DNA from: Bdellovibrionales bacterium Ga0074137
Lineage (GTDB): Bacteria > Bdellovibrionota > Bdellovibrionia > Bdellovibrionales > JAMPXM01
Assembly (NCBI GenBank): GCA_001464715.1
Contig: LNDT01000025.1
Location: 86,612-150,611 of the forward strand
Direction of reading: 5' to 3'
DNA length: 64,000 nucleotides
Part shown: positions 6,176 through 28,042 of the stretch, in pieces
Layout of the letters: every line of letters starts with the position of its first letter
Position numbering within the stretch: the stretch's first letter is position 1
Translations under genes and position numbers: made by a program
The notes under the pieces: model-generated
Seen by the model: only the letters and a program-made list of their open reading frames with translations
Databases searched by the model: none
Told to the model about the DNA's origin: nothing

Positions 6176-6205
6176 ATACTTAAGAGGCAAGCTCTCTGAG
6201 CTTGA

Positions 6206-6706
6206 TTACTTACCGTCGGCGTAAACGCGCGGTTCTTTGGGCTTCTCTAAATGTCCCATTTTAATATCGAGATCAAACACATCGCCGCGCGCATTCTTCG
6301 CTTGAACGATCTTCTTTCCGATAAGCTTCAACCTCGTGACCGGAATCGCAATCAAAGGATCGGCCGCGGAAACCATTGCGCCTGCTGGCGATGTCGGTTC
6401 TGTTTGAGAATAAATTCGGCGTTCCCACTGAAGTTCACCGTTGTCCGTCGCATAAGCGACGATGAAAGTGTCGATCGAGCAGATTCTGCGTCCGGAAACA
6501 CAAGCGTTCGCTTGAACCCGAACAGTGAACGTCGAATTTTTCAGCGTGACCGGCGCCGGCGTCGCAACTGGGTTTGCCTCAGGAATCGCACTTGTCGACG
6601 TTGATGGAGTCACCGCCGGAGTCGTCGGTGGCGACGGTTTCGTCGCGTGGCTGAAGCTTTGCGCAGTGATCAACAAAATACTTATGCCAAGAATGAATAC
6701 TTTCAT
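6206..6706 (-). CDS. secreted hypothetical protein with a Pro/Thr-rich linker
   Basis: Signal peptide MKVFILGISILLITAQSFSHA followed by a PTTPAVTPSTSTS linker. Confidence 0.5.
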   Translation of the reverse strand: MKVFILGISILLITAQSFSHATKPSPPTTPAVTPSTSTSAIPEANPVATPAPVTLKNSTFTVRVQANACVSGRRICSIDTFIVAYATDNGELQWERRIYSQTEPTSPAGAMVSAADPLIAIPVTRLKLIGKKIVQAKNARGDVFDLDIKMGHLEKPKEPRVYADGK

Positions 6707-6718
6707 ACGAGCGACCTC

Positions 6719-8222: not shown

Positions 8223-9185
8223 TTAAGCGGCTTTTCGTGCGCTTTCACGGGCAACGACCAGGCCGACGACGTGCGCAGTCATCTGGGCGAACCGAATTTC
8301 GAAATCCGAGAGCACGGTTTTGCTATCGGGGAGGCGAACCGAGACCACGCCCCAGATGTCGCCGCCGACCCGAACCGGGCAAACCAGCATGGCGTTAAAG
8401 GAAATGGACTTTGTTTGGGCAGCAATCGCGGCCATCGTCGTGTCGTCTTTAAGGTTGTCCAGGGCCAAGGTTTTTTCAGACCGCAAAACGAAAATCACTT
8501 CCGGATATTTCGCCAGATCCAATTTCAAACCATCGATGTCTTTTTTGTCGCTCGACGCGCGAACCGTGCCCTCGTTCACTCCAAGCCGCGCTTCAATCGC
8601 CGACACACGAACGGCCTCGGTCGCAAGCCCCAGCATTCCTGTCAGGTTGTAAAGCGACTGCGCGAGAGGTGCGAGTTTCAGACTTTCTCGCAAGAGAAGT
8701 TCGGTCAAATGCATATAGTGAAGAGCGCGCCCTGAATCGGACACGTCGCCGGCTTTCAGCTCGGTGACCTGACGCTTGGTTTGAAGGTGAAGAATGAGGC
8801 GGCTGACCAGGTCTTCAGCTTTGATAGGCTTAACAAGGTAGTCGCTGGCTCCGGCCTTTAAACACTCTTTCACATTGGCCATGGAGTTGTGCGAGGACAT
8901 GACGAAAACGCGCGATTTTAATTCCGTGTTTTTGTCGTCCGCCAAAATGCCTTCGGCTTTTAGTTTTTTTAAGAATGCGGGGCCGACCATGTCTGACATA
9001 ACCATGTCGTAGAGGACAAAATGTGGGCACCATTCGCGAACCGTTTCCAAAGCGTCGGCGCCCGACGTCACCGTGCGGACTTGAAAGCCGCGCTCACTCA
9101 GCGAATCACGCAATTTGTCCGAGACAAACTGAGTTTCCTCGGCCAAAAGTATTCGGGTGTCGGATGGATGCCGCGGCTTGCTCAA
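8223..9185 (-). CDS. response regulator (receiver domain) fused to a GAF-like domain
   Basis: REC pattern ILLAEE...VLYDMVMSDM...SDYLVKPI. The C-terminal ~170 aa is GAF-like. No DNA-binding domain seen. Confidence 0.7.
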   Translation of the reverse strand: MSKPRHPSDTRILLAEETQFVSDKLRDSLSERGFQVRTVTSGADALETVREWCPHFVLYDMVMSDMVGPAFLKKLKAEGILADDKNTELKSRVFVMSSHNSMANVKECLKAGASDYLVKPIKAEDLVSRLILHLQTKRQVTELKAGDVSDSGRALHYMHLTELLLRESLKLAPLAQSLYNLTGMLGLATEAVRVSAIEARLGVNEGTVRASSDKKDIDGLKLDLAKYPEVIFVLRSEKTLALDNLKDDTTMAAIAAQTKSISFNAMLVCPVRVGGDIWGVVSVRLPDSKTVLSDFEIRFAQMTAHVVGLVVARESARKAA

Positions 9186-9288
9186 AGGTTAAGATTCCTC
9201 CAAGCATCTCTTCGGCCATTTGGCGGAGAAACCCGAGGATAATGCAGTGCGCAATTGCCTCGGCGTCTGCGATTAAGAAAGGGGTCTT

Positions 9289-9942
9289 ATGAGATTTCTG
9301 TCGTTTGAAGGCCTCGACGGTTCGGGGAAGTCGACTTTGATCGAAGGATTGAAGGCCGAGCTTGAGCGCCGCAAGATCAAAGTCCAGGTCACGCGCGAAC
9401 CCGGCGGTACACCTCTCGCCGAAGAAATTCGGAATCTGATTTTGAGACCCGAGGGCGGCGAGGCACCGGTCGCGGCCACCGAAATTCTTTTGTATCAAGC
9501 AAGCCGCGCCCAGCATGTTGCGAAAGTGATCGCTCCGGCGCTCGCTTTGGGAGAGTGGGTTCTTTGCGACCGTTTTAGCGAATCGACCGTGGCGTTTCAG
9601 TGTTTTGCGCGCGGGCTTGATCGCGGTGAAGTCAATCGGTTGAACCGATTTGCCGAGCAGGGGTTAAGACCCGAACTCGTCGTGTATTTAGATTTGTCGG
9701 TCGATGCCAGTCGCGCTCGTCAAAATCGCCGCGCAGAAAAAGACAGCGCTCGGTCTTTGGACCGCATCGAAAAAGAGGCCGACGCTTTTCACGAACGCGT
9801 TCGCGAAGGATTTTTGGCCCAAGTGAAGGAAGAGCCCGAGCGTTGGTTTGTTTTGGATGCGGATCTAAGTCCCTCTGATCTTTTGGCAAAAACGGTCAGT
9901 GAACTTTCGCGCCGTGGTTGGTTTGAAGGGATTGGTTCATGA
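9289..9942 (+). CDS. tmk: thymidylate kinase
   Basis: P-loop FEGLDGSGKST and TREPGGTPLAEEIR motifs. ATGA overlap with holB. Confidence 0.9.
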   Translation: MRFLSFEGLDGSGKSTLIEGLKAELERRKIKVQVTREPGGTPLAEEIRNLILRPEGGEAPVAATEILLYQASRAQHVAKVIAPALALGEWVLCDRFSESTVAFQCFARGLDRGEVNRLNRFAEQGLRPELVVYLDLSVDASRARQNRRAEKDSARSLDRIEKEADAFHERVREGFLAQVKEEPERWFVLDADLSPSDLLAKTVSELSRRGWFEGIGS

Positions 9943-10886
9943 AAATCATCGGACACACCGAAGTTCGCGCGCGGCTTCGCGCAATGAAGGATCGCCTTCC
10001 GCCCTCACTTTTGTTTTCTGGCCCCGAGGGCATTGGTCGAAAGCTTGTGGCTTTGGAATTCGCGCGCGATGTGACGGGTGAAACGCGGTCTTTGGATCTG
10101 ACGCAATCCATGTCGCAAACGGAATCTTTGTTTTTCGTTTCTCCCGACGGCGCTTCGATCAAAATTGAACAGATTCGTGAAGCGCTTCATTTTCAAAGTC
10201 TTGCGCGCGATGGAAAGCCGTTATTTTTAATTTTCGATCAAGCGCATTTGATTGGGCCCCAAGCGGCGAACGCACTTTTGAAATCCGTCGAAGAGCCGCC
10301 GCCGGGCGTGCATTTTATTTTTATCACGCCGACACCTGCGTTGATGCTTCAGACGATTCGTTCGCGCTCGCAAGTGATCCGGTTTGCACCTCTTTCGGAC
10401 GACGAAGTTCGCGCCGTCGTAAAAGCGGCCGAGCCCGATTTGAAATTGGAAACGTGGACCGTTGAAATGGCTGGCGGTTCCGCAGGGCTTGCGATCGAGA
10501 TGTCTCGGGTCGGTGATGATGCGGCCGATGTTCGCCCCGTGATCGAACGCTTGGTCGATGCGTGTGGGCCCGATGGCGGAATGACTGAACGGACGGAAGC
10601 CTTGATCGGCGTGCGAGAAAATTTGAAAGATCGCGAGCGCCACGTGATGGCTTTACGTTTTTTGGTGCGCGAAATGAATTCCGCGTGGCGCTCAAAAGCC
10701 CGCGGCGAAAAACCGCTGTCGTGGCTTGGCTCGTTGCCGTTCGATTCTTTGGACGCCGCCACCGATCTCGCCCTCGAAGCCGAGGCCGACCTCTCTCGCA
10801 ACGTCGACCGCCAACTTTTGTGGGAGTCTTTTTCTTCGCGGCTTTCGCGCGTCTCACAAGCGATCGGGCGAGCACCAGCTTCGTAG
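9939..10886 (+). CDS. holB: DNA polymerase III delta-prime subunit
   Basis: LLFSGPEGIGRK Walker-A-like motif, ANALLKSVEEPP and QTIRSRSQ motifs, and its position after tmk. Confidence 0.8.
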   Translation: MKIIGHTEVRARLRAMKDRLPPSLLFSGPEGIGRKLVALEFARDVTGETRSLDLTQSMSQTESLFFVSPDGASIKIEQIREALHFQSLARDGKPLFLIFDQAHLIGPQAANALLKSVEEPPPGVHFIFITPTPALMLQTIRSRSQVIRFAPLSDDEVRAVVKAAEPDLKLETWTVEMAGGSAGLAIEMSRVGDDAADVRPVIERLVDACGPDGGMTERTEALIGVRENLKDRERHVMALRFLVREMNSAWRSKARGEKPLSWLGSLPFDSLDAATDLALEAEADLSRNVDRQLLWESFSSRLSRVSQAIGRAPAS

Positions 10887-11076
10887 CGCGCCCCGTTAGA
10901 CAAAATAGTAATTGTTTACATATAAAACTTTCTTTGGATGAATAGTCGCTGACTCTTTTTTAGAGCGGAGGCCGTGCGTGGTGGGGAAGTTTCAGCTTTT
11001 TTTGGATGGTATTGTTACGAAGTTTGGCTTTGGCGATTGGTTTTGCGATTGTGCCGTTCGGCTAAAACGCGGCCAA

Positions 11077-14000
11077 ATGGCGATACTATATTCAGTTTCC
11101 TTTTTGCTTGCCGCAACTCCATCAATGGCTTGTCACATTGATCCAGCTCAGCAAGCCTCCCTGGATTTTGCGAGCGAATCATGTATTAACGATTATGCCG
11201 GAGTTTGGGAGGGAACTTATTATTACAACTACGGCACTCCGTACATGAACTACACCTGTACCAATGGTGGTGGTGTCGTCAGCTATTTCACCGGTCTTCA
11301 CTGCCCGACGCGGCCAGTAGAACCGCCAACAAGTATGGCTCCATCACCGACAACGGCGAACAGCTGCCCAATAAAAGGTTCTGTCATTCGTCCCGAATCT
11401 CGGGTGATCGAAGAGAACATTTCTATTGCCGGTACAGGGTACACTCTTAACTACTCAAGCGATCGAGCGTTTGGCTATTCGTCCAATCGTTACAAGCACG
11501 TAAATACTTATGTTGGCGAGTGTTTAGCCTTACGAACTCGTCATGAGACGGGCGGTGGATCTCCTCTTCCGCCCGAGTGCCAGAGTCGCGATGTGCGAAT
11601 CGAAGTCGCAGGAAGAGTCTTCAACCCGACGGTCGTCAACAGTAACCCAGCAGGTTATCAGTTCTTTTGGGATGGACTCGATGCCAGCGGAAACTTCACT
11701 TCTGGTTCGGGTCTTGCGAAATTCACCATCACCGACATTCCGGCCGATGTGAATGAAGTCCCAGCGACTTACTCTCAGCCCATCGGTTCGTTTTACTCAA
11801 TCATAATAGGTCTTGGCGGCTGGACGATTTCTCCGGTTCATTTTTATGATGTTCATCAAGCGACAGTCTTTCGCGGCGATGGATCGAAATTCAAAACCCT
11901 TTCGGCGGCTCTTTCTGGCGGAACCTACTCTGTTCCATCTTCGGATGCGTCTGAAGTCTATGTTTTCGATTCAACAGGTCGGCACCTGCAGACGAAGACA
12001 GGAATTAAGGGCACCGTTATTTTGACGATGACTTACGTGGCAGGTAAAATTTCGACGATCACAGACGCATTCTCAAACGTGACGACTGTCAATTACATCT
12101 CTAATAAACCAGTTTCGATTGTTGGACCGTTTGGTCATACGACAACTCTCGCGACCGACGCGGATGGGTACTTGACTGCGGTTACAAGCCCATCGGCCGA
12201 AACATTTAACATGACCTACTATTCAGGCGCAGCGAAAGGTCTTCTTCAGAATTTTCAAAAGCCCAAAGGTATTGTCACCAGCCTAAGCTACGACAGTTTC
12301 GGTCTTCTCACCTATGATTCGAGTTCCGCTGGAAGTTCTTTATCACTTTTGTCGACATTCCCGGACGTCGTTGAAGCGACCTCAGATCTGGGAATCAAGA
12401 CGGAGTACCTTAGGTCGATAACCTCACTTGGTGCTACGACGCTTACGAAAACAGGCCCCGGTGCAATGAATAGCACCTTCACTCATTCAGTAACACCTGA
12501 TGGTATTTTGCAGTACATACAAGGCACGGACAACATCGGCGTAACTCTTTACGACAACAAGACCGCAGATCCTCGCTTCCCATCCGTTTTCGAAACAAAC
12601 AATTTTACGCAGCAAACGTCCAGTTATCTTCGTAGTTTTGCCGTCACAAAGGCGGCGACGTTAAGCAATCCGGATGATCCCTTCAGCGTTGTCGACTTGA
12701 CTGAAACTACCGTCTTGAATTCTTCAAAGACAACGACGTCGGCGTACCTTTCTTCGACGTCGAAGTTCACGAGGACTTCGCCGGTGGGTAGAAAGAACTA
12801 TGTGACGGTCGACTCCTTTGAGCGTCCGATCTCGACGCAGTTTGCGACCTACGCACCGGTCACCGTTTCCTACGATACGCGCGGACGCGTGTCGACGGTC
12901 GCACAAGGCACCTCGAGAACTTCGACCTTCACATATGACTCCAGCGGAAACCTACAGTCGATCACGAATCCGTTAAGCCAAACGAAGACTTTCGGCTACG
13001 ACTCTTCTGGGCGAGTGACGAGCGAAACTTTTCCAGATTCACGGGTGATCAGCTACGCCTATGATCTGAATGGAAACTTAGCTAGTGTGACTCCGCCAGG
13101 GGGCCTTGCGCACTCGTTTGTTTCGAATGGTTTCGATCTCATTGGGAAATACACAAGTCCCGCAGTGAGTTTCTTTGGAGTGGAAGTCCCGGCCAAGAAA
13201 GTATCATCAAAACTGGCTACGATTTATAATTCAGCTATCCAGTGGGCGGCCGAATTTTTGCGGACATTTTTACCGGAAGCTTCGTCGAAAGTTCGAAGGC
13301 TTCTTGTAAACCGCGACACGGACTATTTTTACGACAATGATAGAAAGCTGACTTCCGTTGTCCGGCCTGATGGTGCCACCGCGAGCTTCACATATAGTGC
13401 GACGTCAGGGCGCCTCGATGGAATCGTTACGCCCCTTGGTAACTACGTAATCAACCAGAATTCTTACTATAGCTATATAGATTCAGTCGTTTCGCCAGAT
13501 GGGGTTACTCAGACCTTTTCGCATGACGGCCCGTTCTTGATGAGCGCGATAAATTCTGGTGCAACATCGGGATCGGTTTATTTCACTTACAATAACGAGT
13601 TCCAGTTAGCCTCCTCAAAAGTCAATACAGCCACGACACTAAATTATGTCTACGACAATGATGGTCTTGTGACGACGGCAGGGAATCAAACGATCACCCG
13701 AAGCACAACGACGGGTTTTCCCACCAAGACGACCTTGTCGACTGCGAACGAAAATTACACGTACTCGACGTCGTTCGGGGAACTCGCCTCCATCCAAGGA
13801 AAGTACGGAACAACCACAAATATTTATCAGTCAGTTTTAACAAGAGATGATCTGTCTCGGATTGTTCAGAAAGTTGAAACGGTCGGCGTTCTGGCTTCGA
13901 ATACATACGCATACACCTTCGACTCTTCGGGAAGATTGACGACCGTTCTCAAAAACAGTGCGCCTCATTCTGCATATGTCTATGACTCGAATTCAAATCG

Positions 14001-15054
14001 CACGTCAGTCACTCGAAACGGGACGACTTTGACAGCGACATTTGATGAGCAAGACCGAATCGTGACGTTTGGAACAAAGACCTACGCCCACAACGATGCG
14101 GGCGAGGTGCTGTCGATCACAGACACGTCAACCGCGCCTTCGTCGGTAACCACTTACACGTACGATGTCTTTGGAAACTTGAAGTCGGTCAGTCTTCCGA
14201 ACAGCACCGTAATTTCATATGTGCTGGATGGTCAGAATCGTCGTGTAGGGAAGAAAGTCGGCGTCACTCTTCAGAAACAATTCGTTTGGTTCGATCAGCT
14301 TCGCCCGGCCGCAGAATTGAACGGAACCGGCGCGATCGTTTCACAATTTGTTTATGGCATTAAAGGCAATGTCCCTGACTACATCATAAAAGGTTCAGTT
14401 CGCTACAAGCTAATGACCGATCACTTAGGAAGTGTCGTAGCCGTCGTTCACTCAACCAACGGAACAGTCGCCCAAAGAATCGAGTACGACGAATTCGGCC
14501 GCGTCCTCAGCGACACAAGCCCCGGCTTCCAACCGTTTGGTTTCGCTGGTGGGATTTATGACAGTGACACGGGGTTAGTGCTGTTCGGTGCCAGAACCTA
14601 CGATGCCGAAACGGGACGGTGGTTGAGTAAGGATCCGATTCTATTCGCCGGGGGCGATACGAACCTCTACGGGTACGTGATGAACGACCCAATAAATTTG
14701 GTAGATCCGAGCGGATTGAGCCAGAAAGAAGTAGATTTTGCGATGGGATGGATTCGGCGAAATCGACCGGACCTGGTCAAAGGTATTGGTGGGGTGAAAG
14801 CGACGGCGACGAATTTGCTGCCAAGCGGAACCACTGGTTTTACCCTACCGGGGCGCATACTGATCGACTCAGCTGCTTCTGATAATCAGAGTAATGCGAT
14901 TTATCTAGTAGCCCACGAACTGCAACACGCTCAAAGGGGAGTGTTGAATACAATACTTTTCCAAACTCAGGCGGAGCATGATTCAATCTATACAAACGCT
15001 TTTCGGGTCCAAGACCTTTATGATTCGCAGCAGTCGAATCCGAGTTGTCGATGA
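11077..15054 (+). CDS. Rhs/YD-repeat polymorphic toxin with a signal peptide and an HExxH (metallopeptidase-like) C-terminal toxin domain
   Basis: Many YD-type repeats (YDSSGNL, YAYDLNGNL, YTYDVFGNL). The Rhs core end is [43 protein letters not shown], followed by a ~112-aa tip containing VAHELQHA. The ATG at 11077 gives the signal-like MAILYSVSFLLAATPSMA; the ORF is open from GTG at 10978. Confidence 0.85.
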   Translation: MAILYSVSFLLAATPSMACHIDPAQQASLDFASESCINDYAGVWEGTYYYNYGTPYMNYTCTNGGGVVSYFTGLHCPTRPVEPPTSMAPSPTTANSCPIKGSVIRPESRVIEENISIAGTGYTLNYSSDRAFGYSSNRYKHVNTYVGECLALRTRHETGGGSPLPPECQSRDVRIEVAGRVFNPTVVNSNPAGYQFFWDGLDASGNFTSGSGLAKFTITDIPADVNEVPATYSQPIGSFYSIIIGLGGWTISPVHFYDVHQATVFRGDGSKFKTLSAALSGGTYSVPSSDASEVYVFDSTGRHLQTKTGIKGTVILTMTYVAGKISTITDAFSNVTTVNYISNKPVSIVGPFGHTTTLATDADGYLTAVTSPSAETFNMTYYSGAAKGLLQNFQKPKGIVTSLSYDSFGLLTYDSSSAGSSLSLLSTFPDVVEATSDLGIKTEYLRSITSLGATTLTKTGPGAMNSTFTHSVTPDGILQYIQGTDNIGVTLYDNKTADPRFPSVFETNNFTQQTSSYLRSFAVTKAATLSNPDDPFSVVDLTETTVLNSSKTTTSAYLSSTSKFTRTSPVGRKNYVTVDSFERPISTQFATYAPVTVSYDTRGRVSTVAQGTSRTSTFTYDSSGNLQSITNPLSQTKTFGYDSSGRVTSETFPDSRVISYAYDLNGNLASVTPPGGLAHSFVSNGFDLIGKYTSPAVSFFGVEVPAKKVSSKLATIYNSAIQWAAEFLRTFLPEASSKVRRLLVNRDTDYFYDNDRKLTSVVRPDGATASFTYSATSGRLDGIVTPLGNYVINQNSYYSYIDSVVSPDGVTQTFSHDGPFLMSAINSGATSGSVYFTYNNEFQLASSKVNTATTLNYVYDNDGLVTTAGNQTITRSTTTGFPTKTTLSTANENYTYSTSFGELASIQGKYGTTTNIYQSVLTRDDLSRIVQKVETVGVLASNTYAYTFDSSGRLTTVLKNSAPHSAYVYDSNSNRTSVTRNGTTLTATFDEQDRIVTFGTKTYAHNDAGEVLSITDTSTAPSSVTTYTYDVFGNLKSVSLPNSTVISYVLDGQNRRVGKKVGVTLQKQFVWFDQLRPAAELNGTGAIVSQFVYGIKGNVPDYIIKGSVRYKLMTDHLGSVVAVVHSTNGTVAQRIEYDEFGRVLSDTSPGFQPFGFAGGIYDSDTGLVLFGARTYDAETGRWLSKDPILFAGGDTNLYGYVMNDPINLVDPSGLSQKEVDFAMGWIRRNRPDLVKGIGGVKATATNLLPSGTTGFTLPGRILIDSAASDNQSNAIYLVAHELQHAQRGVLNTILFQTQAEHDSIYTNAFRVQDLYDSQQSNPSCR

Positions 15055-15368
15055 TGATGAACAAGATATTTGTATTCCAACGAATTGTGTTTCCAATCGT
15101 GATCCTGCTTTTCCTTAAGTCTATCGCTCCCGTGAAGTTGGCCATCGAGGGATTGATGAGAGCAGGATGTGTTGAGCAGTGCGAAAGCAGTCGGCAGCTG
15201 TTATTCTCAGCGGTGGATGCCTTCAAATGGATTGGCATTCTTAGTGCGCTATTTCTCATCTCTTGCGCTGTCATGGAGGTTGTCTCGAATCGTAAGGCGC
15301 TGGTCGCATGGCTAACTTTGGGACTCAATCTGATCGCGCTGATCGGTGCCGTAGTGTTGACTTGGTAG
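15051..15368 (+). CDS. small 3-TM membrane protein, candidate cognate immunity protein for the Rhs tip
   Basis: The ATG overlaps the Rhs stop (cgATGAtgatg). Three hydrophobic helices. Assigned from position only. Confidence 0.5.
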   Translation: MMMNKIFVFQRIVFPIVILLFLKSIAPVKLAIEGLMRAGCVEQCESSRQLLFSAVDAFKWIGILSALFLISCAVMEVVSNRKALVAWLTLGLNLIALIGAVVLTW

Positions 15369-16028: not shown

Positions 16029-17063
16029 TCAATTCCCCGTCTCTGGTACCCCTGAAACTTCAAAAAATTCAGCTCTCGAAACTTTAAAACGGCCGTAAAG
16101 TTCTTCAGTCATTCGAACGTGCTGATGACCCATGATCTTTTGAAGTTCGTTGATATCGCGCCCAGCTTTCAGAAAGTTGACGGCGAATGAATAGCGAAGG
16201 TCGCGGTAGACCCAGTCTTGTTCAATCTTCAGCTGCCGCTTTAAGATGCGAAGCTCACGAACGAGACAGTGCTTATACAAAGGGCGTCCTTCCAGGTTCG
16301 TAAAAACGTATTCGCTCAACTGTTCGAGGACTTTAAGTGCAGCGACTAGATTTTCAGAAATCGGCAGGATGCGAGTCTGAATCTTCTCACCATCTCGAAG
16401 AACAACTCTTGCCGCGCCAAAATCGAGGTCTCGCCATTTGAGCTCTAGAATGTCATGAGTTTTTGCGGCCGTTTCACACACGAGAAGCAAAATTGGATAG
16501 AGGTAACCTGGGCTCAGTCGTTTAGCTCCTTCAAGGGCTTCTTCGATTTGCTTTGGTTTTACCCAAATGTGTTTTCGTTTGTAGATCTTGCTTCGGCCCA
16601 TCGTGATTTTTGATTGAGGAGAATCCCCAATAATTCCTCGCGACGTCATCCATTTAAAGAAGCCTTGCAGCTGATATTTGCGCGTCGCGAGACTGTGGCT
16701 GGTGTAGTCGTATTCAAGCTTCTGGCGCTGGTAGAAGCTTCGCATCCCAAGCTCATCAATTTGCGAAGGGCGATAAATCGCAAATTGATTTAAAAAATCC
16801 CGAATCAACTGGGGACTTCGAATAAGCGAAGCATCTGGCACTTCTTCAGCGTACAAACCAAGAAGCTCTTCGACCGAATATTCCTTTAATGGCCGACGCT
16901 GTTCTTTGATTGGCTTCCACATGCGAAAACGGTTGTAAGCTTCCGTCGCTTTCCACTCTTCTTTAAACGTCTCGGCGATGCGTTCTCGTTTTAAAGAGTT
17001 GAAATAGGAAACGACGAATTCTCCGTTCGGCAAAGGGTAGTAGCGAATGTCGATTGGCTTCAT
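16029..17063 (-). CDS. tyrosine recombinase family protein, divergent active site
   Basis: C-terminal RDLRYSFAVNFL ... GHQHVRMTEELYGRF (box II with His and Tyr). Aligned to its neighbour, box I reads ETAAKTHD instead of TGARRSE. 4-nt overlap with the upstream recombinase gene. Confidence 0.8.
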   Translation of the reverse strand: MKPIDIRYYPLPNGEFVVSYFNSLKRERIAETFKEEWKATEAYNRFRMWKPIKEQRRPLKEYSVEELLGLYAEEVPDASLIRSPQLIRDFLNQFAIYRPSQIDELGMRSFYQRQKLEYDYTSHSLATRKYQLQGFFKWMTSRGIIGDSPQSKITMGRSKIYKRKHIWVKPKQIEEALEGAKRLSPGYLYPILLLVCETAAKTHDILELKWRDLDFGAARVVLRDGEKIQTRILPISENLVAALKVLEQLSEYVFTNLEGRPLYKHCLVRELRILKRQLKIEQDWVYRDLRYSFAVNFLKAGRDINELQKIMGHQHVRMTEELYGRFKVSRAEFFEVSGVPETGN

Positions 17064-18100
17064 ATTATCTCCGTTTCATTTTTTTCATAAGGGCATGCGT
17101 TTTCGATATCTTGGGCACCGATCTGCCCGTAGGTATCAACGGTCACGTCGATACTTCGGTGACCTAAGATGGCTTGGAGCTCATACATGTTCCCCTTCTG
17201 CTTTAGGAAGTTGTACGCGAACGAGTGGCGAAGTGAGTGTGGTCCCCAATGCTTTCCGATTGGGAATTGCTTTCTGAATCGCCTGAGATGTTTTCCGATG
17301 ATGTGTCGGGGCACCATCTCGCCATTATGGTAAGGCACAACGTGTTCGTGGCTATGGCTTGCGAGGAACTCTTCGAGAAAGACTTTGAGGCTTTTCGTGA
17401 TTCGGATGGATCGGTCTTCACCGTTTTTGGTCCGCCGGAAATGCACAAGACCAGTTTCAAAATCGACGTCGTGTCTTTTGAGTTTTAAAACCTCGCTTCG
17501 GCGGGCACCTGTGTAGGCCGCAATAAATAGAATCGGATAAAGCGTCTTCGGACTAAAGACTCTTACGCCGTCGAGAACCTTCATCACTTCGTCCACAGAT
17601 AGAACAACTCGCGGGCGTCGTGGCGGCGGCTTCCTGGCGAATCGCACTTTCATAAGAGGCGAATCTGAAATTACGCCCTCGTCTTCGAGATGAATGAAGA
17701 AGCTATTGAGCTCGGACTTAATTGTGTTGAGCGTTCGATCCGAAAGATCATTCTCTTCCTTGATTTTCTTAAACCACAACGAGAGTTCGGTTTTTCCAAC
17801 CTGGTTAAGGGGCCGTTTACCAAACGACTGACAAAAAGATTCAAAATGCTTCTTTCGATTTCGCACTCGCGAATTCGGAAACTGCTCCAGATAAATCTTC
17901 ATGTATTGTTCAATCGGCGTTTGGTTAAGGCTCTGCGGCCCTTTGGTTTGAAACTTAAGCTCGATGTCACTTCGGTAGCGTTTCGCTTCTACTTTCGATT
18001 CGAACTTTGTTCGTTTCCGCTTCTGTGTTGTTGGATCTTTGTAGCAGACGACGTGATGGCCATCTTTAAGCTGATAGATTTTAACTTTAAGAGAATTCAT
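17060..18100 (-). CDS. tyrosine recombinase / phage-type integrase
   Basis: Canonical YTGARRSEVLKL, HSLRHSFAYNFL and LGHRSIDVTVDTYGQI motifs. The ATG at 18100 lies 2 nt after the upstream stop; the ORF is open to 18139. Confidence 0.85.
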   Translation of the reverse strand: MNSLKVKIYQLKDGHHVVCYKDPTTQKRKRTKFESKVEAKRYRSDIELKFQTKGPQSLNQTPIEQYMKIYLEQFPNSRVRNRKKHFESFCQSFGKRPLNQVGKTELSLWFKKIKEENDLSDRTLNTIKSELNSFFIHLEDEGVISDSPLMKVRFARKPPPRRPRVVLSVDEVMKVLDGVRVFSPKTLYPILFIAAYTGARRSEVLKLKRHDVDFETGLVHFRRTKNGEDRSIRITKSLKVFLEEFLASHSHEHVVPYHNGEMVPRHIIGKHLRRFRKQFPIGKHWGPHSLRHSFAYNFLKQKGNMYELQAILGHRSIDVTVDTYGQIGAQDIENACPYEKNETEII

Positions 18101-18102
18101 AT

Positions 18103-19347
18103 CTAGAAACTCCCTTTGGCAGACTTCGATTCGGTCCAAGCCTTTAGTTTTTGACGGTCGACCACGAACTTTTTCTTTAAGCCAACGTTCAATGACGGAA
18201 ACGTCGGATCCGTTTTGACGAGGCTATAGATCGTCCAAGTTGAAACTCTCATCATTTTTGCGACCTCCTTAATTGTGATGAATCCGTTATTAATTTCGGA
18301 TTCTTTATCGGCCGGCCTACAGTCCTCGAAATTCTCGAGCAACGGTTGACACGGCCGGGTCGTTTCTTTGACGGCCGTGTCAGCGAGCTCTGTTAGTTCA
18401 ATCGATCCAACGGTTGGTCCGCGATGCTTTGGGTACGGAATGTTCTGAAGCTCAGGATGCAGTGTCTTGAATTTCGCCAAGAGATTCTTTGTTTCTTTTT
18501 TGTCGAGGCCAGCGAAGGAAGCATATTTGTGTTTTGGTTCGACCATTCGCATTTTGCAAAGGGCCTTGTGGCTTTTCGCGTGGAGCTTGATGGCTTCCGC
18601 TGTTTTATCTGGAATCGCCGACCAATTGACGACGCGGTTTCCGTTACCATTGAATCCATCCCAATGGTGACGCCACTGGATTCCGAGTTCGCGACAATAT
18701 CTTTTGATCTGACTCGTTTGGCGAAACTGTCGGTCCGTAAACCAACCGAGGTCTGGGTAATTGGCATCGAAGTACTCGTACCTGGTTCCCGAGTTTTGCC
18801 CGAGGTAAATGAAGTTGCACGCTTGGTAGATCGTGCCGAGCTCTCTGGCTGCGACGTCACCGTAGGCGGTAAAAATGCGAAAGCCTGTGTTCTTCACCAT
18901 CCATCGAATTGAAAACATGATGAGTGCGGAAGCCAAATTCTTCGGCGACCACGAGATACATGCACCGCGACTAATGAGCTTTTCTAGGTTTCGGTCTTCT
19001 TCGCCCAATAGGTTCGAGAAACTGTTTGGCGTCGCCATGACGATGACCCCGGCTAACTGACCCCTGTAGGTCGCAATGAAGCGGTGGGTGGGTCTGTTGG
19101 GCATTTTGCCGAGCCATTCGTGACGCCGAATGAACTGAACGATCTCCATCCATCTTTGGAATTCAGTTTTCGGGACGTAAGAAAACTCGAAGTCGCCGAC
19201 TCGAAGCTTCTCGGCGTCCTCTTTCGTAAGTCCTGCGGCTTTTAAATCCTCTTCTAGGTTCTTGAGTCGGATCTCATACTGCCAGCAGTGACCAGCTGAA
19301 TAATCGTCTGTTGGACGAGAGACGGGTTGAGGAATAAGGTCTTCCAT
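18103..19347 (-). CDS. fusion protein: Mom-like GNAT-fold domain (N-terminal) plus Xis/AlpA-type HTH (C-terminal)
   Basis: The N-terminal half has HEWLGKMP, AGVIVMATP and RIFTAYGDVAARELGTIYQACNFIYLG. This resembles the Mom-family pattern SYAD..GH.G.IYQA.NW.Y.G. The C-terminus, ITIKEVAKMMRVSTWTIYSLVK...FVVDRQKLKAWT, is a typical excisionase-type HTH. It is the first gene of an operon with both recombinases. The CDS itself is confident; the domain call is motif-level. Confidence 0.45.
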   Translation of the reverse strand: MEDLIPQPVSRPTDDYSAGHCWQYEIRLKNLEEDLKAAGLTKEDAEKLRVGDFEFSYVPKTEFQRWMEIVQFIRRHEWLGKMPNRPTHRFIATYRGQLAGVIVMATPNSFSNLLGEEDRNLEKLISRGACISWSPKNLASALIMFSIRWMVKNTGFRIFTAYGDVAARELGTIYQACNFIYLGQNSGTRYEYFDANYPDLGWFTDRQFRQTSQIKRYCRELGIQWRHHWDGFNGNGNRVVNWSAIPDKTAEAIKLHAKSHKALCKMRMVEPKHKYASFAGLDKKETKNLLAKFKTLHPELQNIPYPKHRGPTVGSIELTELADTAVKETTRPCQPLLENFEDCRPADKESEINNGFITIKEVAKMMRVSTWTIYSLVKTDPTFPSLNVGLKKKFVVDRQKLKAWTESKSAKGSF

Positions 19348-19879
19348 CGGGATACCTCCAGAGTGAGTACGATATAGTACTCAGTTGAAGCTCGGCTCGG
19401 TCGCCAAGGTTCGTTGAGTGATTGAAACTCTTAGGAAATTTTGATTCTAAATTTTTTAAGGCGGTCGCCTAGGTGATGGGAAGGCGACGAGAAGGCGACG
19501 GGGTTGCGACTCTTGTTTTGTGACTAGTTGGCGACACGAGAATATCGAGTCGCTTACCTATTTGTATTGCAAGGCGTACCAACAAATCGACAAAAGTGAT
19601 TTAAGGCTTTGATGTGGCGTGGGAATTTTGATTTTCGCCGAAAAAGCGGAATGAAGAAACATTCAAAAGATTTGAATGTTTCCGGACGCTGATTCAGTGA
19701 TTTCAATATCTTATCCGTGTTCAAATAATTTGAAGGCGTTCACGGAATTTGAGCTTAAGTCTTTTGAATAACTCGAAAGAGCCCACACCGACCGCGTCGC
19801 ACAACTCTGACTGCTCGAATACTTGGACAAAGAAATAAACTGAACTGCGGCAGTATCTCCCTGCGACTAAAGAAGCTGT

Positions 19880-20551
19880 TCAATCTTTAATTCGAGGAAA
19901 ATTGCTGAGGGAGTCGACGTTGCGTTCACCGCTGAATGTGCGGTGCCGTCCCATGCCGCTAATATTCATTCGGTAACTGGGTGCTGTCGACCAAGGGTCG
20001 ACGCCTTTCGAAATCACCAACTGCCCCTCTCGATCGTAACAGGCGACAGTCTGGTTTTCTTGGAAAGGAAACTGCTGACCTTCGGCTGCAACAGGATTCT
20101 TAATCTTTGCTGAGTAGAAGTCCGATTCCCGATGTTCTAGGCCAACCTGGTCTGCGCGATTGCTGAATCCCTCGATATAAAGGTCGCATCCGCCCAAATA
20201 GATTTCTTGGTTATCGACAGAATCGTAAATCGTCGCGCCGATGCGATCATAAGTTTCGAAACGCCATCGAAAGTGCCAAAAACTGTGTCTACGTTCATCG
20301 CCGCGAGAAAGTTCGTATAGATTTCGCAAGCTATCTAGGCGGAGAATTTTTGTATGAGCGTGGATAGCTGCGGTCTGTTTTTGGATTGCTTCGGTATTGG
20401 CTTTTATCGCAACTGAAATCTCAGAACTTTCGTGATTAAGTTTGTTTGAGAACCAAATTGCGTACACCGAAATTCCGGTACCAACAACCGCCCCGATGAC
20501 TGTAGCCATATTGATCCAACCAATTTCCATATTCGCAAAGACACTGTACAT
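19880..20551 (-). CDS. hypothetical protein with an N-terminal TM helix and an unknown C-terminal domain
   Basis: TM segment ATVIGAVVGTGISVYAIWF, then a short coiled segment, then a ~150-aa domain with no motif I recognise. It lies 86 nt downstream of the AbiGi-like gene on the same strand. Confidence 0.55.
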   Translation of the reverse strand: MYSVFANMEIGWINMATVIGAVVGTGISVYAIWFSNKLNHESSEISVAIKANTEAIQKQTAAIHAHTKILRLDSLRNLYELSRGDERRHSFWHFRWRFETYDRIGATIYDSVDNQEIYLGGCDLYIEGFSNRADQVGLEHRESDFYSAKIKNPVAAEGQQFPFQENQTVACYDREGQLVISKGVDPWSTAPSYRMNISGMGRHRTFSGERNVDSLSNFPRIKD

Positions 20552-20637
20552 CCAGCTAGGTTCCCATATTCTACAAAATTGATGCGATAATTGAACTATG
20601 GCGACTGCGTTTTGTTAATTGATCGTGGTGCAGTTTT

Positions 20638-21447
20638 CTACAAAGCAGAGGCCAAATCTTGCCGACCTTTCGATTTAAAGTGGCCGATCAGAACGTCAGT
20701 GTCCCAGTCTGGATCCACAAACATAATCTTGTCAGCGCAAAGTTTTTCGAACTCAGGAATTCGCCCCTCCGGGCACAGACCGAATGCTACGTCGGAAAAT
20801 TCGAACTTCAAATCTCCGACGTGACGCCACTCACGTTCCCAGCGAAAGTCGATTTCGTAGGCCAGCGGGAATTTGGCTTTTCTGGCAGGGCCGAAGGATT
20901 CGAAGAGCGGAAGCAATGGTTTGCAAGCGGTGAGGAACTGCGGATCCGCAAGACGATCGACTGCGTTGTAGATGTCGTCTTTTCTTGAGTCGAAATAAAA
21001 AATCGGATGGCCGCCACGATCGCGAATGAAATCAGTGAAGAATGCGAGGCCAAACTTTTGATAACGATTGAGTTTATACGCGTACTGTGTGGAATTCTGC
21101 GTCGAGCGATAAAACGATCGAAGTTCGCGGAGCGGAGTCTCTGAAAAGCAGACGCATTTCAACCAATCAGGAGGGACGGACCGTCGAAGTTTACTATAGA
21201 TATTGATATCGAATTTAAAGTGACCGAACGGCGCTCTTCCTTCGAGCTTGGGGCCATTGGTCGCGTGAAGAATTTGTTTTAGAGATTTGTCGGCCACTAA
21301 ATTTAACGAGTTGCCGAACTGATAGTGTCCTGATTTAGGCAAGTACTTTTCGTAGTTCTCATAGCTGCCATTTTTTGTCAGATGAATCAGGAAGTTCGAC
21401 AGGTCGGCACGATCAGAGGAAAAGGATTCGCTTGGATTTCCGCCCAC
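20638..21447 (-). CDS. AbiGi-like abortive-infection family protein
   Basis: Motif series FLIHLTK, CVCFSETPL, YQKFGLAF..GGHPIFYFD and FRWEREWRHV parallels the AbiGi family (lfHfTk, CFcDiPL, YG.yGI.f, EREWR). GTG start. Confidence 0.55.
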   Translation of the reverse strand: MGGNPSESFSSDRADLSNFLIHLTKNGSYENYEKYLPKSGHYQFGNSLNLVADKSLKQILHATNGPKLEGRAPFGHFKFDINIYSKLRRSVPPDWLKCVCFSETPLRELRSFYRSTQNSTQYAYKLNRYQKFGLAFFTDFIRDRGGHPIFYFDSRKDDIYNAVDRLADPQFLTACKPLLPLFESFGPARKAKFPLAYEIDFRWEREWRHVGDLKFEFSDVAFGLCPEGRIPEFEKLCADKIMFVDPDWDTDVLIGHFKSKGRQDLASAL

Positions 21448-21503
21448 TTAAAAGCTCGCCTTTCCGTTGATTTTGGCACATAGATCGCATACTTAGTAAG
21501 GAG

Positions 21504-21800
21504 ATGAATAATTCAACGAAGCTTCAAATTTTCACCTTCAGCGACCGTTTTAATTGGTCATTTCTAGATGTTCAAACTGAAGCGTTCAATGCGGCACTTC
21601 GTCGAGCAGAAATCATGGGTTGGTCCGATATTCGCCTCGTGCCAGTAAGCCTCACTCCGAAAATTCAGAACGACGTCCGGAATTATGAATTTGAAATTTG
21701 GGGCGCCGGTGAAGCGGTTCTCGAATCATCGCAAGAATCCGAGTCGGCATTGTCGCCGGTCGAAACTTTCCGTAACGTTGCTCGAGACACCGAACTTTAA
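21504..21800 (+). CDS. hypothetical 98-aa protein
   Basis: ATG ORF divergent from the AbiGi-like gene, with an acidic C-terminus. No motif recognised. Confidence 0.4.
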   Translation: MNNSTKLQIFTFSDRFNWSFLDVQTEAFNAALRRAEIMGWSDIRLVPVSLTPKIQNDVRNYEFEIWGAGEAVLESSQESESALSPVETFRNVARDTEL

Positions 21801-21949: not shown

Positions 21950-22459
21950 TTGTGCACTTATGGCCGTATCAGACCTTACGATGCGGAAACCGGAAGATGG
22001 CTCTCGAAGGACCCCATTTTATTCGCAGGGGGAGACACAAATCTGTATGGGTACGTCCTCGCGGACCCCGTCAATTTGATTGACCCTAGTGGGCTTGCCT
22101 CGTTCCAGGAGAATCTGGCGTATCGACAGAATGCAAACAGTCGAGTGGCTGACCAAGTAACACGTATGGCGACCGGATTTGCGATTGGAAGTTCATTCGC
22201 CAGAAATATGCGGCCGCTAGGTCTCGGTGTCGGATTGTTCGAAGCCTATCGCTATGGTTTTAATATTCCGCTTTTGGGCGTAAGAGGGACCTTACTCGGG
22301 CTCGTAGCGAACTCGGCGGCCCAATCGGCCTTCATATTCGGAGCATTTACGGCTGGCGCTTGGGCCGGTGACTACATTGGGGCGGCGATTGACACTTACG
22401 TCGACAACAACGGGGGCCAATGTAATGCTTTGAGTGGGGCCGGGTTCGGTTCTCATTAG
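21950..22459 (+). CDS. orphan Rhs C-terminal module: Rhs core-end remnant plus an alternative Gly/Ala-rich (glycine-zipper) toxin tip
   Basis: [41 protein letters not shown] matches the end of the main Rhs core. It is followed by a hydrophobic tip with GAWAGDYIG (GxxxGxxxG). There is an in-frame stop immediately upstream, and a TTG start preceded by GGAG. Confidence 0.7.
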
Positions 22460-22467
22460 GAGGGCGA

Positions 22468-22830
22468 TTGGGCATCGTATATGATAGCGAGCATCAGAAA
22501 CGAGAGACATTCATTTTCAAAAATGGCGACTACCGAGGTGTAATAGCTTTTTTTGCTCTCGCTCCGGTTGCGGTAGTCAGCATTTGGTTTGCCTATCATT
22601 ACCGAAGTGGTGTGGGCGGCATGTTAGCTATAGGATGTGTCGGCTTCATGATTTGGGCAGTGAGCGGAAAATGCCAAATCTGCGGACGACGGTATCTTTT
22701 AGGCTATCTAAATGGTCATTTTGGTAGCGACTGGTTTCATGAAATTATGCATTCGAAAATTTGTTTGAATCCGAATTGTCCTAGTCGTCACAGTTCCACC
22801 TCTCAAAAGGCGGCAGGTGATATTGGGTAG
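22468..22830 (+). CDS. membrane protein with a C-terminal Cys4 zinc-ribbon-like motif, candidate immunity protein for the orphan tip
   Basis: GGAGG lies 4 nt before the TTG start, directly after the orphan toxin stop. Two TM helices. CQICGRR ... CLNPNCPS motif. Confidence 0.45.
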   Translation: MGIVYDSEHQKRETFIFKNGDYRGVIAFFALAPVAVVSIWFAYHYRSGVGGMLAIGCVGFMIWAVSGKCQICGRRYLLGYLNGHFGSDWFHEIMHSKICLNPNCPSRHSSTSQKAAGDIG

Positions 22831-22896: not shown

Positions 22897-23994
22897 ATGG
22901 CCGACGAGTATAAAGTCAGAAGTACGTCGAATGTTTCTGCTGCGGTCGAGGACCGTGAGCTATCATGCTCGACTACAACCCGTCGAATTCTGAGACCAGA
23001 ATTAGTAGACAATCCTAAGAATGCCGACGCCTGTGTCAAAATCTCCATTGTTCATCAAAGGAAGAAGCCGAAGGATGGTTGGGAAGATGTTGAAACTGAA
23101 TCTTTGAATTCGCTTAAGGCCGGTGAGATTAGAAAGCTGAACTTGGATACCGCAGAGACATTGTCTCTTTTCACCGAGCTGAAAAACTTATTCGCGATCA
23201 AGCAAGAAAAAGGCGTCCCTTACGGTGAACGAGACATTGTCGTCGGATACGAGGGGGAAATTATTAAAGCGGACCCCAAAAGGGCGAAGGTCATTCAAGA
23301 GCTGTTGAATCAAGGACACTCCGAGCAAGTTTGGACGGAGTTGGTCAAGCATAAGCCTGACCTGGCAAATAAGCTATGCCTCTTACGAATGCATCAGAAC
23401 AGAGTAGAAGCACTGAAAGAGTTCGAGGCCGGGATGAAAGAAGAAAAGGCGGAAGCCTTCTGGCAGGATTTTTTTGAGCGCAATACATGGATATTTGGTT
23501 TTGGTCTCAACTACAGATTCTTACGACAAGTGCAGAGTCAGCCGTCATACGGAGGAACAAACGTTTCTGGAAGTGGAGCGCAGAGAGGTGACTTTCTCGC
23601 AGCGACAGAGGCAGAGGTCCGATTTACCGTTCTTGTAGAAGTAAAAAAATCCAACACAGCACTGCTTGGTCCGGAGTATCGCAACGGGGCGTTTCCTCCT
23701 AGTCAGGAGTTGGCTGGGGGCGTTGCTCAAGTGCAGACTAACTGCCGAAAGTGGGAAACCGAAGGTTCGCAGTCTGACGAAAACCGCGAAATCTTAGGTG
23801 CCGATAATATCAACAGTGTTCAGCCCAAAGGCATCTTGATTATCGGGAATACGAATCAGCTCAATTCCTCTGCCAAGAAGTCTTCGTTTGAGATTTTTCG
23901 ACGGAATTTGGCGAATCCAGAAGTCATCACTTTTGATGAGTTGTATGAGCGGGCTAAGTACTTTGTCGAACATCCGAAAGACGAAATTGAATAA
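22897..23994 (+). CDS. sduA: Shedu-type defence nuclease (DUF4263 / SduA-like) with an uncharacterised N-terminal domain
   Basis: FWQDFFERNTWIFGFGLNY; PD-(D/E)xK-like RGDFLAA...VLVEVKKS; AQVQ; ILIIGNTNQL; EVITFDELYERA. This order of motifs is typical of DUF4263. Confidence 0.7.
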   Translation: MADEYKVRSTSNVSAAVEDRELSCSTTTRRILRPELVDNPKNADACVKISIVHQRKKPKDGWEDVETESLNSLKAGEIRKLNLDTAETLSLFTELKNLFAIKQEKGVPYGERDIVVGYEGEIIKADPKRAKVIQELLNQGHSEQVWTELVKHKPDLANKLCLLRMHQNRVEALKEFEAGMKEEKAEAFWQDFFERNTWIFGFGLNYRFLRQVQSQPSYGGTNVSGSGAQRGDFLAATEAEVRFTVLVEVKKSNTALLGPEYRNGAFPPSQELAGGVAQVQTNCRKWETEGSQSDENREILGADNINSVQPKGILIIGNTNQLNSSAKKSSFEIFRRNLANPEVITFDELYERAKYFVEHPKDEIE

Positions 23995-26710: not shown

Positions 26711-27727
26711 TCACTCGCGGCGACGGAAGCTATCCATCTTTTTTCGACCGAAAGTCTGTTCGGCCATCATTAGATTGTGCGTGCGACAAAGCGCTCGAAG
26801 ATTTTCGATTGAGTTCTTTCCTCCAAGGGCGCGAGCGTGAATGTGATCGACTTCCAAAAGGTGGCGACTTTCGCAGCGGCGACCGTCAGGCGCTCGATAC
26901 TCACATTGACCGTCCGACTTTCTCAATACCAAGTTTCTTGTCGATGGTTTCACTGACCCCGTAGATTTCGTTATTGCAGCGATCTGGGAATCGCCCTTTG
27001 AGGTATTTGCTTTGCATTGATTCGACGGTGGTTTCGTACGCTCAAACACCGGTGCCACTTCCGCAGCGGTGTCGCCTTGCGCAAGACGCGGCCGAATGAC
27101 TTTTTTTAGTGGATCTTTCTTCTCAAGAAACGCGTCCATCGCGGCATCAAGAAGAGTCGCATTTGAAGCTTCGATGTCGGAATGGGACATGAGTTCCTGA
27201 ATTCGTTTGAGCTTGTCAAATTGTTCGCGGGTGAAGGTCACTTGGACGCTGATTTGATCTTGGCCCACGGCGCGAACTTTTTCTTTCACGGCCTCGGCCG
27301 CTAAGTCTGGAAAATGCTCAGCCAATCTAAATTCAGCTTCGCGGCCCGAGCAAGATTCGACTTTGGCCAAAATTTCAGACTTTGCCTGGACCGACATTTT
27401 CTCGCCAGTGCGCCTCTCGTCAGCACGGATCAAAGTTTGAACTTTTGAAAGCACGGTGAGACCAAGTTCTCCCGACTCTATTTTAACGGAAGCTTCCGGA
27501 ACCGCTTGAAGAATCCGCGCCGCCTGCATCCGTCGATACGCCGCCGATTCGCTATAACCCAAGTCTTTCACGAGCCAGTCAAAAAGTGACGAGTACCCAA
27601 GATCCGCAAAAAGCCTGCGCCGCGCGACTTCACCAATATGATCTAAAATTTCTCGTGTGATTCGCCGTTCTTCTTTCACAAGCGAGCGAACCGCCGAGAT
27701 CAATCCATCGTTTGAAAGTGCGATCAT
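26711..27727 (-). CDS. stand-alone HNH endonuclease (DUF222-like N-terminal region)
   Basis: HNH core CEYRAPDGRRCESRHLLEVDHIHARALGGKNSIENLRALCRTHN. The ATG at 27727 is preceded by GAGGAGG. Confidence 0.7.
   Translation of the reverse strand: MIALSNDGLISAVRSLVKEERRITREILDHIGEVARRRLFADLGYSSLFDWLVKDLGYSESAAYRRMQAARILQAVPEASVKIESGELGLTVLSKVQTLIRADERRTGEKMSVQAKSEILAKVESCSGREAEFRLAEHFPDLAAEAVKEKVRAVGQDQISVQVTFTREQFDKLKRIQELMSHSDIEASNATLLDAAMDAFLEKKDPLKKVIRPRLAQGDTAAEVAPVFERTKPPSNQCKANTSKGDSQIAAITKSTGSVKPSTRNLVLRKSDGQCEYRAPDGRRCESRHLLEVDHIHARALGGKNSIENLRALCRTHNLMMAEQTFGRKKMDSFRRRE
27056..27085 (+). repeat. dispersed 30-nt motif, copy A (inside the HNH gene)
   Basis: CACTTCCGCAGCGGTGTCGCCTTGCGCAAG. 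Contains the palindromes CCGCAGCGG and TTGCGCAA. Confidence 0.6.
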
Positions 27728-28042
27728 AAAAACCTCCTCTTGGTGAGAAAGTCCTATCATCGGTTTTTGGCGACAGATTTTTCGCTCGAGGTTCAGTCCT
27801 ATTTTGTTGCTGAAAGTGCCCATCGGCCGGGGCTCGACGGTCGCAGCCGCCGGCGATAGAGGCGTTTAATATCGGAATCAGAGGTGTCCGGGGAGAACTT
27901 TGAAATCGCGATCTGCAGTTTCGCAAATCGGTTCAAATCCACGTCAAACAATTTCGAACAGTAAGACCTGAGATTTAAGATCTGTCCGAGACTCGTCCTT
28001 GGCAGCCGCAACCTCAACTACTTCACCGCTTCACCGCAATTT

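Follow-up and report, generated by a model that had tools for sequence, protein, structure and literature searches.

AbiG is among the oldest abortive infection systems and is made up of two proteins, AbiGi and AbiGii. To our knowledge AbiG is still without a mechanism, and the links made between AbiGi and the ADP-ribosyltransferases (ARTs) are computational only. An AbiGi-like gene is present in a stretch of 64,000 nucleotides (nt) of contig LNDT01000025.1 from Bdellovibrionales bacterium Ga0074137. The whole of this 64-kb stretch is referred to as the window, and coordinates are window positions unless another locus is named. Three open reading frames (ORFs) were studied. These are the AbiGi-like gene, encoding a protein of 269 amino acids (aa), a gene for a 223-aa membrane protein and a gene for a small acidic protein of 98 aa. 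The AbiGi-like gene and the small ORF are divergently transcribed and very probably form a conserved unit.

PF10899, the Pfam family of AbiGi, was placed among the ART-like families beside DUF2971 and DarT in a survey of ARTs, and AbiGi was reported to be similar in sequence to DUF2971 and DarT (PMC12522546). The window pair is like AbiG in that its larger protein belongs to a family related to PF10899 (35 of 40 aligned relatives match), and both lie among defence genes on mobile DNA. It differs in several respects. The pair has no AbiGii-like partner and no conserved operon partner was found in 35 loci. The partner is instead an acidic protein of approximately 98 aa whose gene is divergently transcribed. 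The window 269-aa protein is below the Pfam threshold and matches no PADLOC model. The host belongs to the Bdellovibrionota, whereas AbiG is found in Firmicutes. As it has neither AbiGii nor an operon, the pair is not a member of AbiG as that system is defined. No description of AbiGi-like genes in Bdellovibrionota or of the small partner was found in the papers searched.

The divergent gene pair

The AbiGi-like gene lies at 20638-21447 on the minus strand and has a GTG start. The small gene lies at 21504-21800 on the plus strand. The two start codons are separated by a shared divergent control region of 56 nt (21448-21503, no strand assigned). The 223-aa gene (19880-20551, minus strand) is co-directional with the AbiGi-like gene and follows it downstream after a spacer of 86 nt. 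An earlier note on this DNA had described the same three ORFs, with one transmembrane (TM) helix in the 223-aa protein, and was accurate in this.

When every ORF of the fetched loci was clustered, a single neighbour of the AbiGi-like gene was seen to recur, namely an ORF of approximately 95-100 aa located directly upstream on the opposite strand. The small-protein family was built from six-frame ORFs of these loci together with a hidden Markov model (HMM) because a word-indexed homologue search returned the query only. Among the 40 loci of Bdellovibrionota type (L001-L040) an HMM homologue was directly upstream and divergent in 39, the sole exception (L033) being cut at the contig end. The small ORF was also detected by HMM in L059 and in the window (E=2e-26), and by blastp in L094-L096, the three closest extra loci. 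The earlier note had remarked on the 98-aa ORF as a possible regulator or antitoxin, and its conservation at these loci shows that it was rightly singled out. Where starts are well defined the two start codons are mostly 50-70 nt apart, and in the closest loci this distance is 56-58 nt.

The small proteins share approximately 20% identity with each other, yet their length is held at 92-102 aa. W40 and A93 are invariant in the alignment. The N-terminal 70 or so residues have a beta-alpha-beta-beta-like layout and are followed by a low-complexity tail rich in Ser and Glu. A conserved motif containing Ala is found near the C-terminus, for example VARD, AAKE or AARP. The family is uniformly acidic, with an isoelectric point (pI) of 4.1-5.7 and a net charge of -2 to -14 (34 of 34 members). 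For the 98-aa protein of the window the pI is 4.5 and the net charge about -6.5. The small-protein and AbiGi-like families were unrelated by hhalign.

The pair is kept across Bdellovibrionota-type genomes regardless of the neighbouring genes. The 122 flanking proteins represent 83 different Pfam families, none of which recurs more than three times. In four metagenome-assembled genomes (MAGs) the pair is present as two diverged copies on different contigs, at L001 and L009, L023 and L025, L005 and L032, and L035 and L038. The pair is accessory, as seen from the two copies in these four MAGs, its carriage on a mobile element and its varied neighbourhoods. Its location in an island of low G+C content was counted as further support for this.

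One alternative is that the AbiGi-like protein acts alone, as a single-gene defence or a housekeeping enzyme, and that the small ORF is an unrelated linked gene or a leader peptide. This would agree with the distant members of the family in Actinomycetota, Dehalococcoidia, Planctomycetota and an archaeon, none of which has a conserved neighbour. It is nevertheless improbable. The linkage in 39 of 40 loci keeps its orientation and spacing across unrelated neighbourhoods, and it persists where identity has fallen to 35-40% for the enzyme and about 20% for the small protein. The small protein also retains its length, acidity and invariant residues as a folded protein would.

The motifs FLIHLTK, CFSETPL, GLAF, HPIFYFD and EREWRH were found in the 269-aa translation. 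They correspond to the invariant or near-invariant columns H22, T24, C100, E103, P105, G133, Y151 and W203-E-R-E-W-R208 in an alignment of 40 sequences. The family alignment contains 20 invariant columns, including the H, C, E and Y positions and WEREWR at 203-208, and in this its conservation resembles that of an enzyme. The 269-aa protein itself aligned to PF10899 over residues 123-216 only, with E=0.0093 and 16.4 bits against a cut-off of 22.4. Its 35 matching relatives did so at E<=0.01, the best at 3.5e-9. On this basis the relation to AbiGi holds at family level and the window protein, being sub-threshold, is a divergent member. The AbiGi likeness claimed in the earlier note is upheld at the level of the family. 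There was likewise no match of the 269-aa protein in NCBIfam or PHROGs, and profile searches of the PDB with the AbiGi-like, 223-aa and small-protein families gave nothing meaningful. The AbiGi-like protein has a pI of 8.5. Its AlphaFold2 (AF2) model is of high confidence, with a predicted local distance difference test score (pLDDT) of 89.8.

The AbiGi-like family is tight, comprising 92 clusters that are mostly from Bdellovibrionota. A scan of one genome per species gave 137 relatives. About 40 of these are of the Bdellovibrionota type with 35-65% identity. The rest have 25-30% identity and come from Actinomycetota, Dehalococcoidia, Planctomycetota and other groups. The distant clade (L041-L080), at the same 25-30% identity, also occurs in Obscuribacterales and in an archaeal MAG. 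L044 holds two distant copies, at 5896-6732 and 8231-8989 of that locus. Recurring neighbour clusters at L041-L080 were rejected as artefacts, being antisense ORFs within the AbiGi-like gene itself.

Possible function of the pair

The preferred reading is that the functional unit is the divergent pair, with the 98-aa acidic protein as inhibitor or regulator and the 269-aa AbiGi-family protein as effector. This reading is given an even chance. The toxin-inhibitor mechanism proposed for it is put forward tentatively. The AbiGi-family protein would be an enzyme of the ART fold, with the series H22 ... C100-x-S102-E103 ... Y151 ... E204-x-E206. It would act as effector or toxin, most likely by modifying nucleic acid or a protein, either cellular or belonging to an invader. 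The small acidic protein, which has a disordered tail, would bind the enzyme and neutralise or regulate it as antitoxins do. Stabilisation of the element, abortive defence or both would result. The small protein is read as a direct inhibitor or regulator of the enzyme because of its charge, its disordered tail and the strict linkage.

The assignment of H22, C100-x-S102, Y151 and E204-x-E206 to ART motifs is the interpretation adopted here, guided by the ART survey (PMC12522546). Three catalytic motifs are expected in order in this superfamily, with H or R in strand 1, Y or S-x-S in the strands after it, and E or E-x-E in strand 5. In the AbiGi-like model the motifs are in order on predicted strands, with H22 (19-28), C100-x-S102 (97-102), Y151 (150-153) and E204-x-E206 (206-210). 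All of the ART-motif residues are invariant or nearly so in the AbiGi-like family. The family resembles the modified H-Y-E clade of DUF2971 (PF11185) and DarT (PMC12522546) in the series H ... C-x-S-E ... G-hydrophobic ... Y-F ... E-x-E-W-R, which has the same order and a similar spacing. A DUF2971 gene is found directly 3' of the AbiGi-like gene in L094. Its product has the same five motifs in identical order and similarly spaced, at positions 41, 125, 151, 175 and 232 compared to 21, 99, 133, 149 and 204 in the AbiGi-like protein. As a second ART-like member with the same motif series, it would place two related enzymes side by side in L094. The pair differs from DarT-type systems in that it is not an operon and lacks a macrodomain antitoxin of the DarG kind. 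Its resemblance to DarTG is limited to the predicted fold of the enzyme.

The pair also shares features with type II toxin-antitoxin modules. A small acidic protein with a disordered tail is encoded beside a basic enzyme, and the two genes form a compact cassette that is carried on mobile DNA and can be present in several copies in one genome. Unlike those modules the pair is divergent across 40 loci and not bicistronic. No DNA-binding fold is recognisable in the small protein, and the promoter is sigma-54-like and not an autoregulated sigma-70 promoter. The divergence of its genes excludes the pair from the canonical type II toxin-antitoxin modules.

A number of results weigh against an ART-fold enzyme held in check by a small inhibitor. 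The similarity to the one DUF2971 sequence compared is weak, as the L094 protein aligned to the AbiGi-like family in hhalign with E=0.048 and a probability of 1%. Foldseek searches with the AbiGi-like model gave no ART structure. There was no significant relative in the PDB (best E about 2), and nothing below E=0.048 was found in BFVD. The rifampin ADP-ribosyltransferase 2hw2 appeared at E=2.1 with TM values of 0.13/0.22 and is not counted as evidence. For the small protein there was no match in Pfam, NCBIfam, PHROGs or PADLOC and no relative in the PDB, and no DNA-binding or other known domain was found in it. No small partner or conserved neighbour was detected for the distant AbiGi-like genes (L041-L080). 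Divergent transcription is atypical for toxin-antitoxin pairs. A 2026 review likewise found no ART structure for lactococcal AbiGi (PMC13064643). In E. coli neither of the lactococcal proteins, AbiGi or AbiGii, was toxic on its own (PMC3985639).

From its sequence, the control region bears a putative sigma-54 promoter directed at the small gene. The sigma-54-like -24/-12 element TGGCACATAGATCGC (21474-21488, plus strand) is located 15 nt upstream of the small-gene ATG. It has the form TGGCAC-N5-TCGC, in which 9 of 10 positions agree with the sigma-54 consensus TGGCAC-N5-TTGC. In 24 of 34 loci the small-gene strand carries a GG-N10-GC match, compared to 4.5 loci on average and 12 at most after shuffling. 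L026 matches the consensus perfectly and L094-L096 also carry the element. For the pattern TGGYAYN5TBGCW there are three hits in the window where 0.43 would be expected, and of these only the TGGCACATAGATCGC copy is intergenic. In a promoter and terminator consensus scan sites were no commoner than chance. The distance from the GC to the small-gene ATG is fixed at 13-15 nt in the subclade of the window, so that the small-gene mRNA would be nearly leaderless. Several members do lack a Shine-Dalgarno sequence.

Promoters of the sigma-54 type require an activator and are normally silent otherwise. The small protein may therefore be produced only upon a signal. This fits poorly with an antitoxin that needs constant production, and is a further point against the inhibitor. 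A different reading is that the small protein is made under stress through sigma-54 and serves the enzyme as activator, adaptor or substrate, or that a sigma-54 closed complex mainly represses the enzyme gene. It is a serious rival, as the divergent arrangement and the sigma-54-type promoter suit a classical antitoxin poorly. In its favour are the element seen in 24 of 34 loci and its fixed distance from the ATG in the subclade of the window. An RpoN-like sigma factor is encoded in Bdellovibrio (bd0843; PMC3464611), and the need for an activator makes a signal-dependent small protein possible. However, the sigma-54 assignment is one of pattern alone and 10 of the 34 loci had no match. An almost leaderless mRNA would be unusual and no activator gene is present in the element. 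A stress-induced role for the small protein is considered rather unlikely.

In its most complete form the enzyme and inhibitor reading would make the acidic protein and its AbiGi/DUF2971-type ART-like enzyme an undescribed two-gene family for toxin immunity or abortive defence, largely confined to Bdellovibrionota. The enzyme would carry out a DarT-like modification of nucleic acid, the small protein would inhibit it directly, and the 56-nt region would couple the pair to stress through sigma-54. This combined proposal is speculative.

The 223-aa membrane protein

A single hydrophobic segment is present in the 223-aa protein (residues ~14-35), where the Kyte-Doolittle mean over 19 residues is 1.73. 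No Pfam, NCBIfam or PHROGs match and no meaningful PADLOC match was found. Matches to LeoBC (E=0.007) and Drt1b (E=0.054) covered only the TM/helix part and were dismissed as noise. The family is small and uniform. It comprises 17 clusters in a set of 5.8 billion proteins and 44 representatives in a library of 1.84 billion, all of 200-270 aa and identical in layout. Its signature is YWHFxWRFET together with a C-terminal RIKD, and the window copy reads YWHFRWRFET. The AF2 model was of moderate confidence (pLDDT 74). The predicted structure has the TM helix running into a long helix (residues 10-81), then a short helix and a six-stranded all-beta C-terminal domain. Foldseek of this model against the PDB gave nothing below E=0.18. 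A metagenome scan for the family returned a single locus.

The earlier note had proposed the AbiGi-like and 223-aa genes as a non-canonical two-gene defence module. If co-transcribed, the membrane protein would take the place of AbiGii. The two genes are indeed co-directional and 86 nt apart in the window, and the spacer has no convincing terminator. The gene that follows the AbiGi-like gene after 62 nt in L001 also encodes a membrane protein, although one of unrelated sequence. The comparative data do not bear the module out. When 17 members of the 223-aa family were compared by tblastn to 80 AbiGi-like loci, with up to 6 kb of flank per side, no homologue was found. With the three closest-relative loci included the count was 0 of 83. 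Conversely, 13 loci carrying the 223-aa protein were fetched, about nine of them independent, and the AbiGi-like gene was present in none (0 of 13). The slot 3' of the AbiGi-like gene is occupied by unrelated genes in the closest elements (L001, L094, L095 and L096). In 22 of 35 loci the next gene downstream runs convergently, on the strand opposite to the AbiGi-like gene. The spacer between the AbiGi-like and 223-aa genes also contains a plausible -10 box, TAGAAT, which would allow separate transcription. The absence of co-occurrence was the outcome that the earlier note had itself named as refuting, and a two-gene module of this kind is now very improbable. The case is a caution for scans of this type, as neighbouring genes in one genome pointed to a module for which the comparison of loci gave no support.

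There is little doubt that the 223-aa gene is independent of the AbiGi-like gene. Its homologues adjoin McrBC, a 1188-aa DEAD-box protein (a helicase), integrases, recombinase fragments, a RelE/helix-turn-helix (HTH) pair and an N6-methylase-like gene. This recurrent placement beside recombinases and restriction or defence genes, in a family of one architecture, suggests a membrane protein that acts independently, as an effector or in exclusion, in mobile elements and defence islands. The 223-aa protein may be such a single-gene effector, possibly a remote relative of the SMODS-associated NUDIX family (Sa_NUDIX, PF18167), and this is offered as a tentative proposal. Two of 38 relatives matched PF18167, the best being P0125 with E=1.4e-4 and 22.3 bits over residues 14-128. 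These matches are below the cut-off of 25 bits, are limited to two members and fall on the TM/helical part. The window protein itself had no PF18167 match and no Nudix box is visible in the family alignment. The predicted all-beta C-terminal domain and the Foldseek result also count against a NUDIX relationship.

Some 223-aa homologues are preceded by a gene for a small TM protein, which overlaps by 4 nt or lies 26 nt upstream. This protein is 160 aa in L082 (5522-6004) and L090 (343-825), with 56% mutual identity, and 214 aa in L087 (475-1119). In hhalign the 160-aa protein and the 223-aa family have a short LYxLS...FWHxR stretch in common (E=0.002, probability 14%). On account of this stretch the 160-aa protein may be a truncated paralogue of the 223-aa protein.

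The mobile element and the island

The window element spans 16029-21800. It includes two tandem tyrosine recombinases of 359 aa and 344 aa (16029-18139, minus strand; PF00589 at 1.2e-21 and 3.3e-21). Next to these is a gene for a 414-aa fusion of a Mom-like domain to a C-terminal HTH/excisionase-like domain (18103-19347, minus strand). The fusion matched PF25680 Mom (3.7e-11), HTH_17 (3.2e-5) and phrog_1384 (6e-15). The Mom/HTH gene overlaps the first integrase gene by 37 nt. It belongs to the backbone of the element and is kept in all related elements. Approximately 530 nt between the Mom-like and 223-aa genes (19348-19879) are without a convincing ORF or an Rfam match. This stretch may contain a junction of the cargo slot or promoters.

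Four loci are syntenic with the window, namely L001 (enzyme 65% identical) and L094, L095 and L096 (66-69%). The common order is Rhs tips, small ORF, AbiGi-like gene, a variable stretch, Mom/HTH and one or more integrases. The element spans 5639-12586 in L001, 1295-13713 in L094 and 1102-6852 in L096. Orthologues of Mom/HTH are found at the matching position in L001, L094 (twice) and L096 with 55-56% identity. Orthologous recombinase pairs are present in L094 and L096, and one integrase is present at the cut end of L001. Rhs tips adjoin the pair likewise in L001, L095 and L096, while L094 has a YD-shell giant gene instead. The variable slot is occupied by the 223-aa gene in the window. In L094 it contains the 328-aa DUF2971 gene (8968-9954, plus strand) and in L096 a gene of 201 aa that is unrelated. 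L001 has a polytopic membrane gene (278 aa) there together with other genes, and L095 has convergent Rhs tips. As these contents differ among syntenic relatives the 223-aa gene is taken to be swappable cargo. L094 also contains a second element in tandem, which is without the pair and consists of a 236-aa gene, Mom/HTH, IntA and IntB.

These loci form a family of integrative elements with a Mom-like/HTH gene, two tandem tyrosine recombinases and a variable slot, located between a full-length Rhs gene and orphan tips. In the window the full-length Rhs gene encodes 1358 aa (10978-15054, plus strand). A 107-aa membrane ORF overlaps its end (stretch 10978-15368) and is probably the immunity gene. 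On the small-gene side of the element is an orphan Rhs core-end/toxin-tip fragment of 169 aa (21950-22459, plus strand; TIGR03696 Rhs_assc_core 7.8e-14). A 120-aa ORF 3' of this tip (stretch 21950-22830) may be its immunity gene. The arrangement is like that of the orphan-toxin arrays and integrative elements of Rhs loci, as the element has a full-length Rhs gene and its immunity gene on one side and orphan Rhs tips on the other, which is also the case in L001 and L094-L096. It differs in being a Mom/HTH and double-integrase element with non-Rhs cargo. No att-type direct repeats longer than 14 nt were found at plausible element ends. No tRNA genes or Rfam RNAs were found at the element.

The orphan Rhs tip region adjoins a complete Shedu SduA gene (22897-23994; PADLOC E=1e-67). 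The G+C content is 0.46-0.48 over 16-26 kb compared to about 0.50-0.55 in much of the remaining window. The island is bordered by housekeeping genes including PGK, GAPDH, TIM, ribosomal protein S1, cytidylate kinase, TatD and RuvC. Just outside the island and beside TatD is a 370-aa ORF (26711-27823, minus strand) with a C-terminal HNH-like motif (HxxxxxxGG...N...LC..H). The placement of the genes as cargo of a mobile element in a defence/toxin island, as claimed at the outset, is confirmed by the integrase-bearing element in this Rhs/Shedu region.

The immune repertoire of predatory bacteria is little studied. The swappable slot of Mom/HTH-integrase elements in Rhs loci is a useful place in which to seek further defence or toxin genes. 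The clade described here has dropped AbiGii and kept a strictly linked small acidic protein, and so offers a minimal two-protein system in which the action of an AbiGi-type enzyme and its restraint can be tested.

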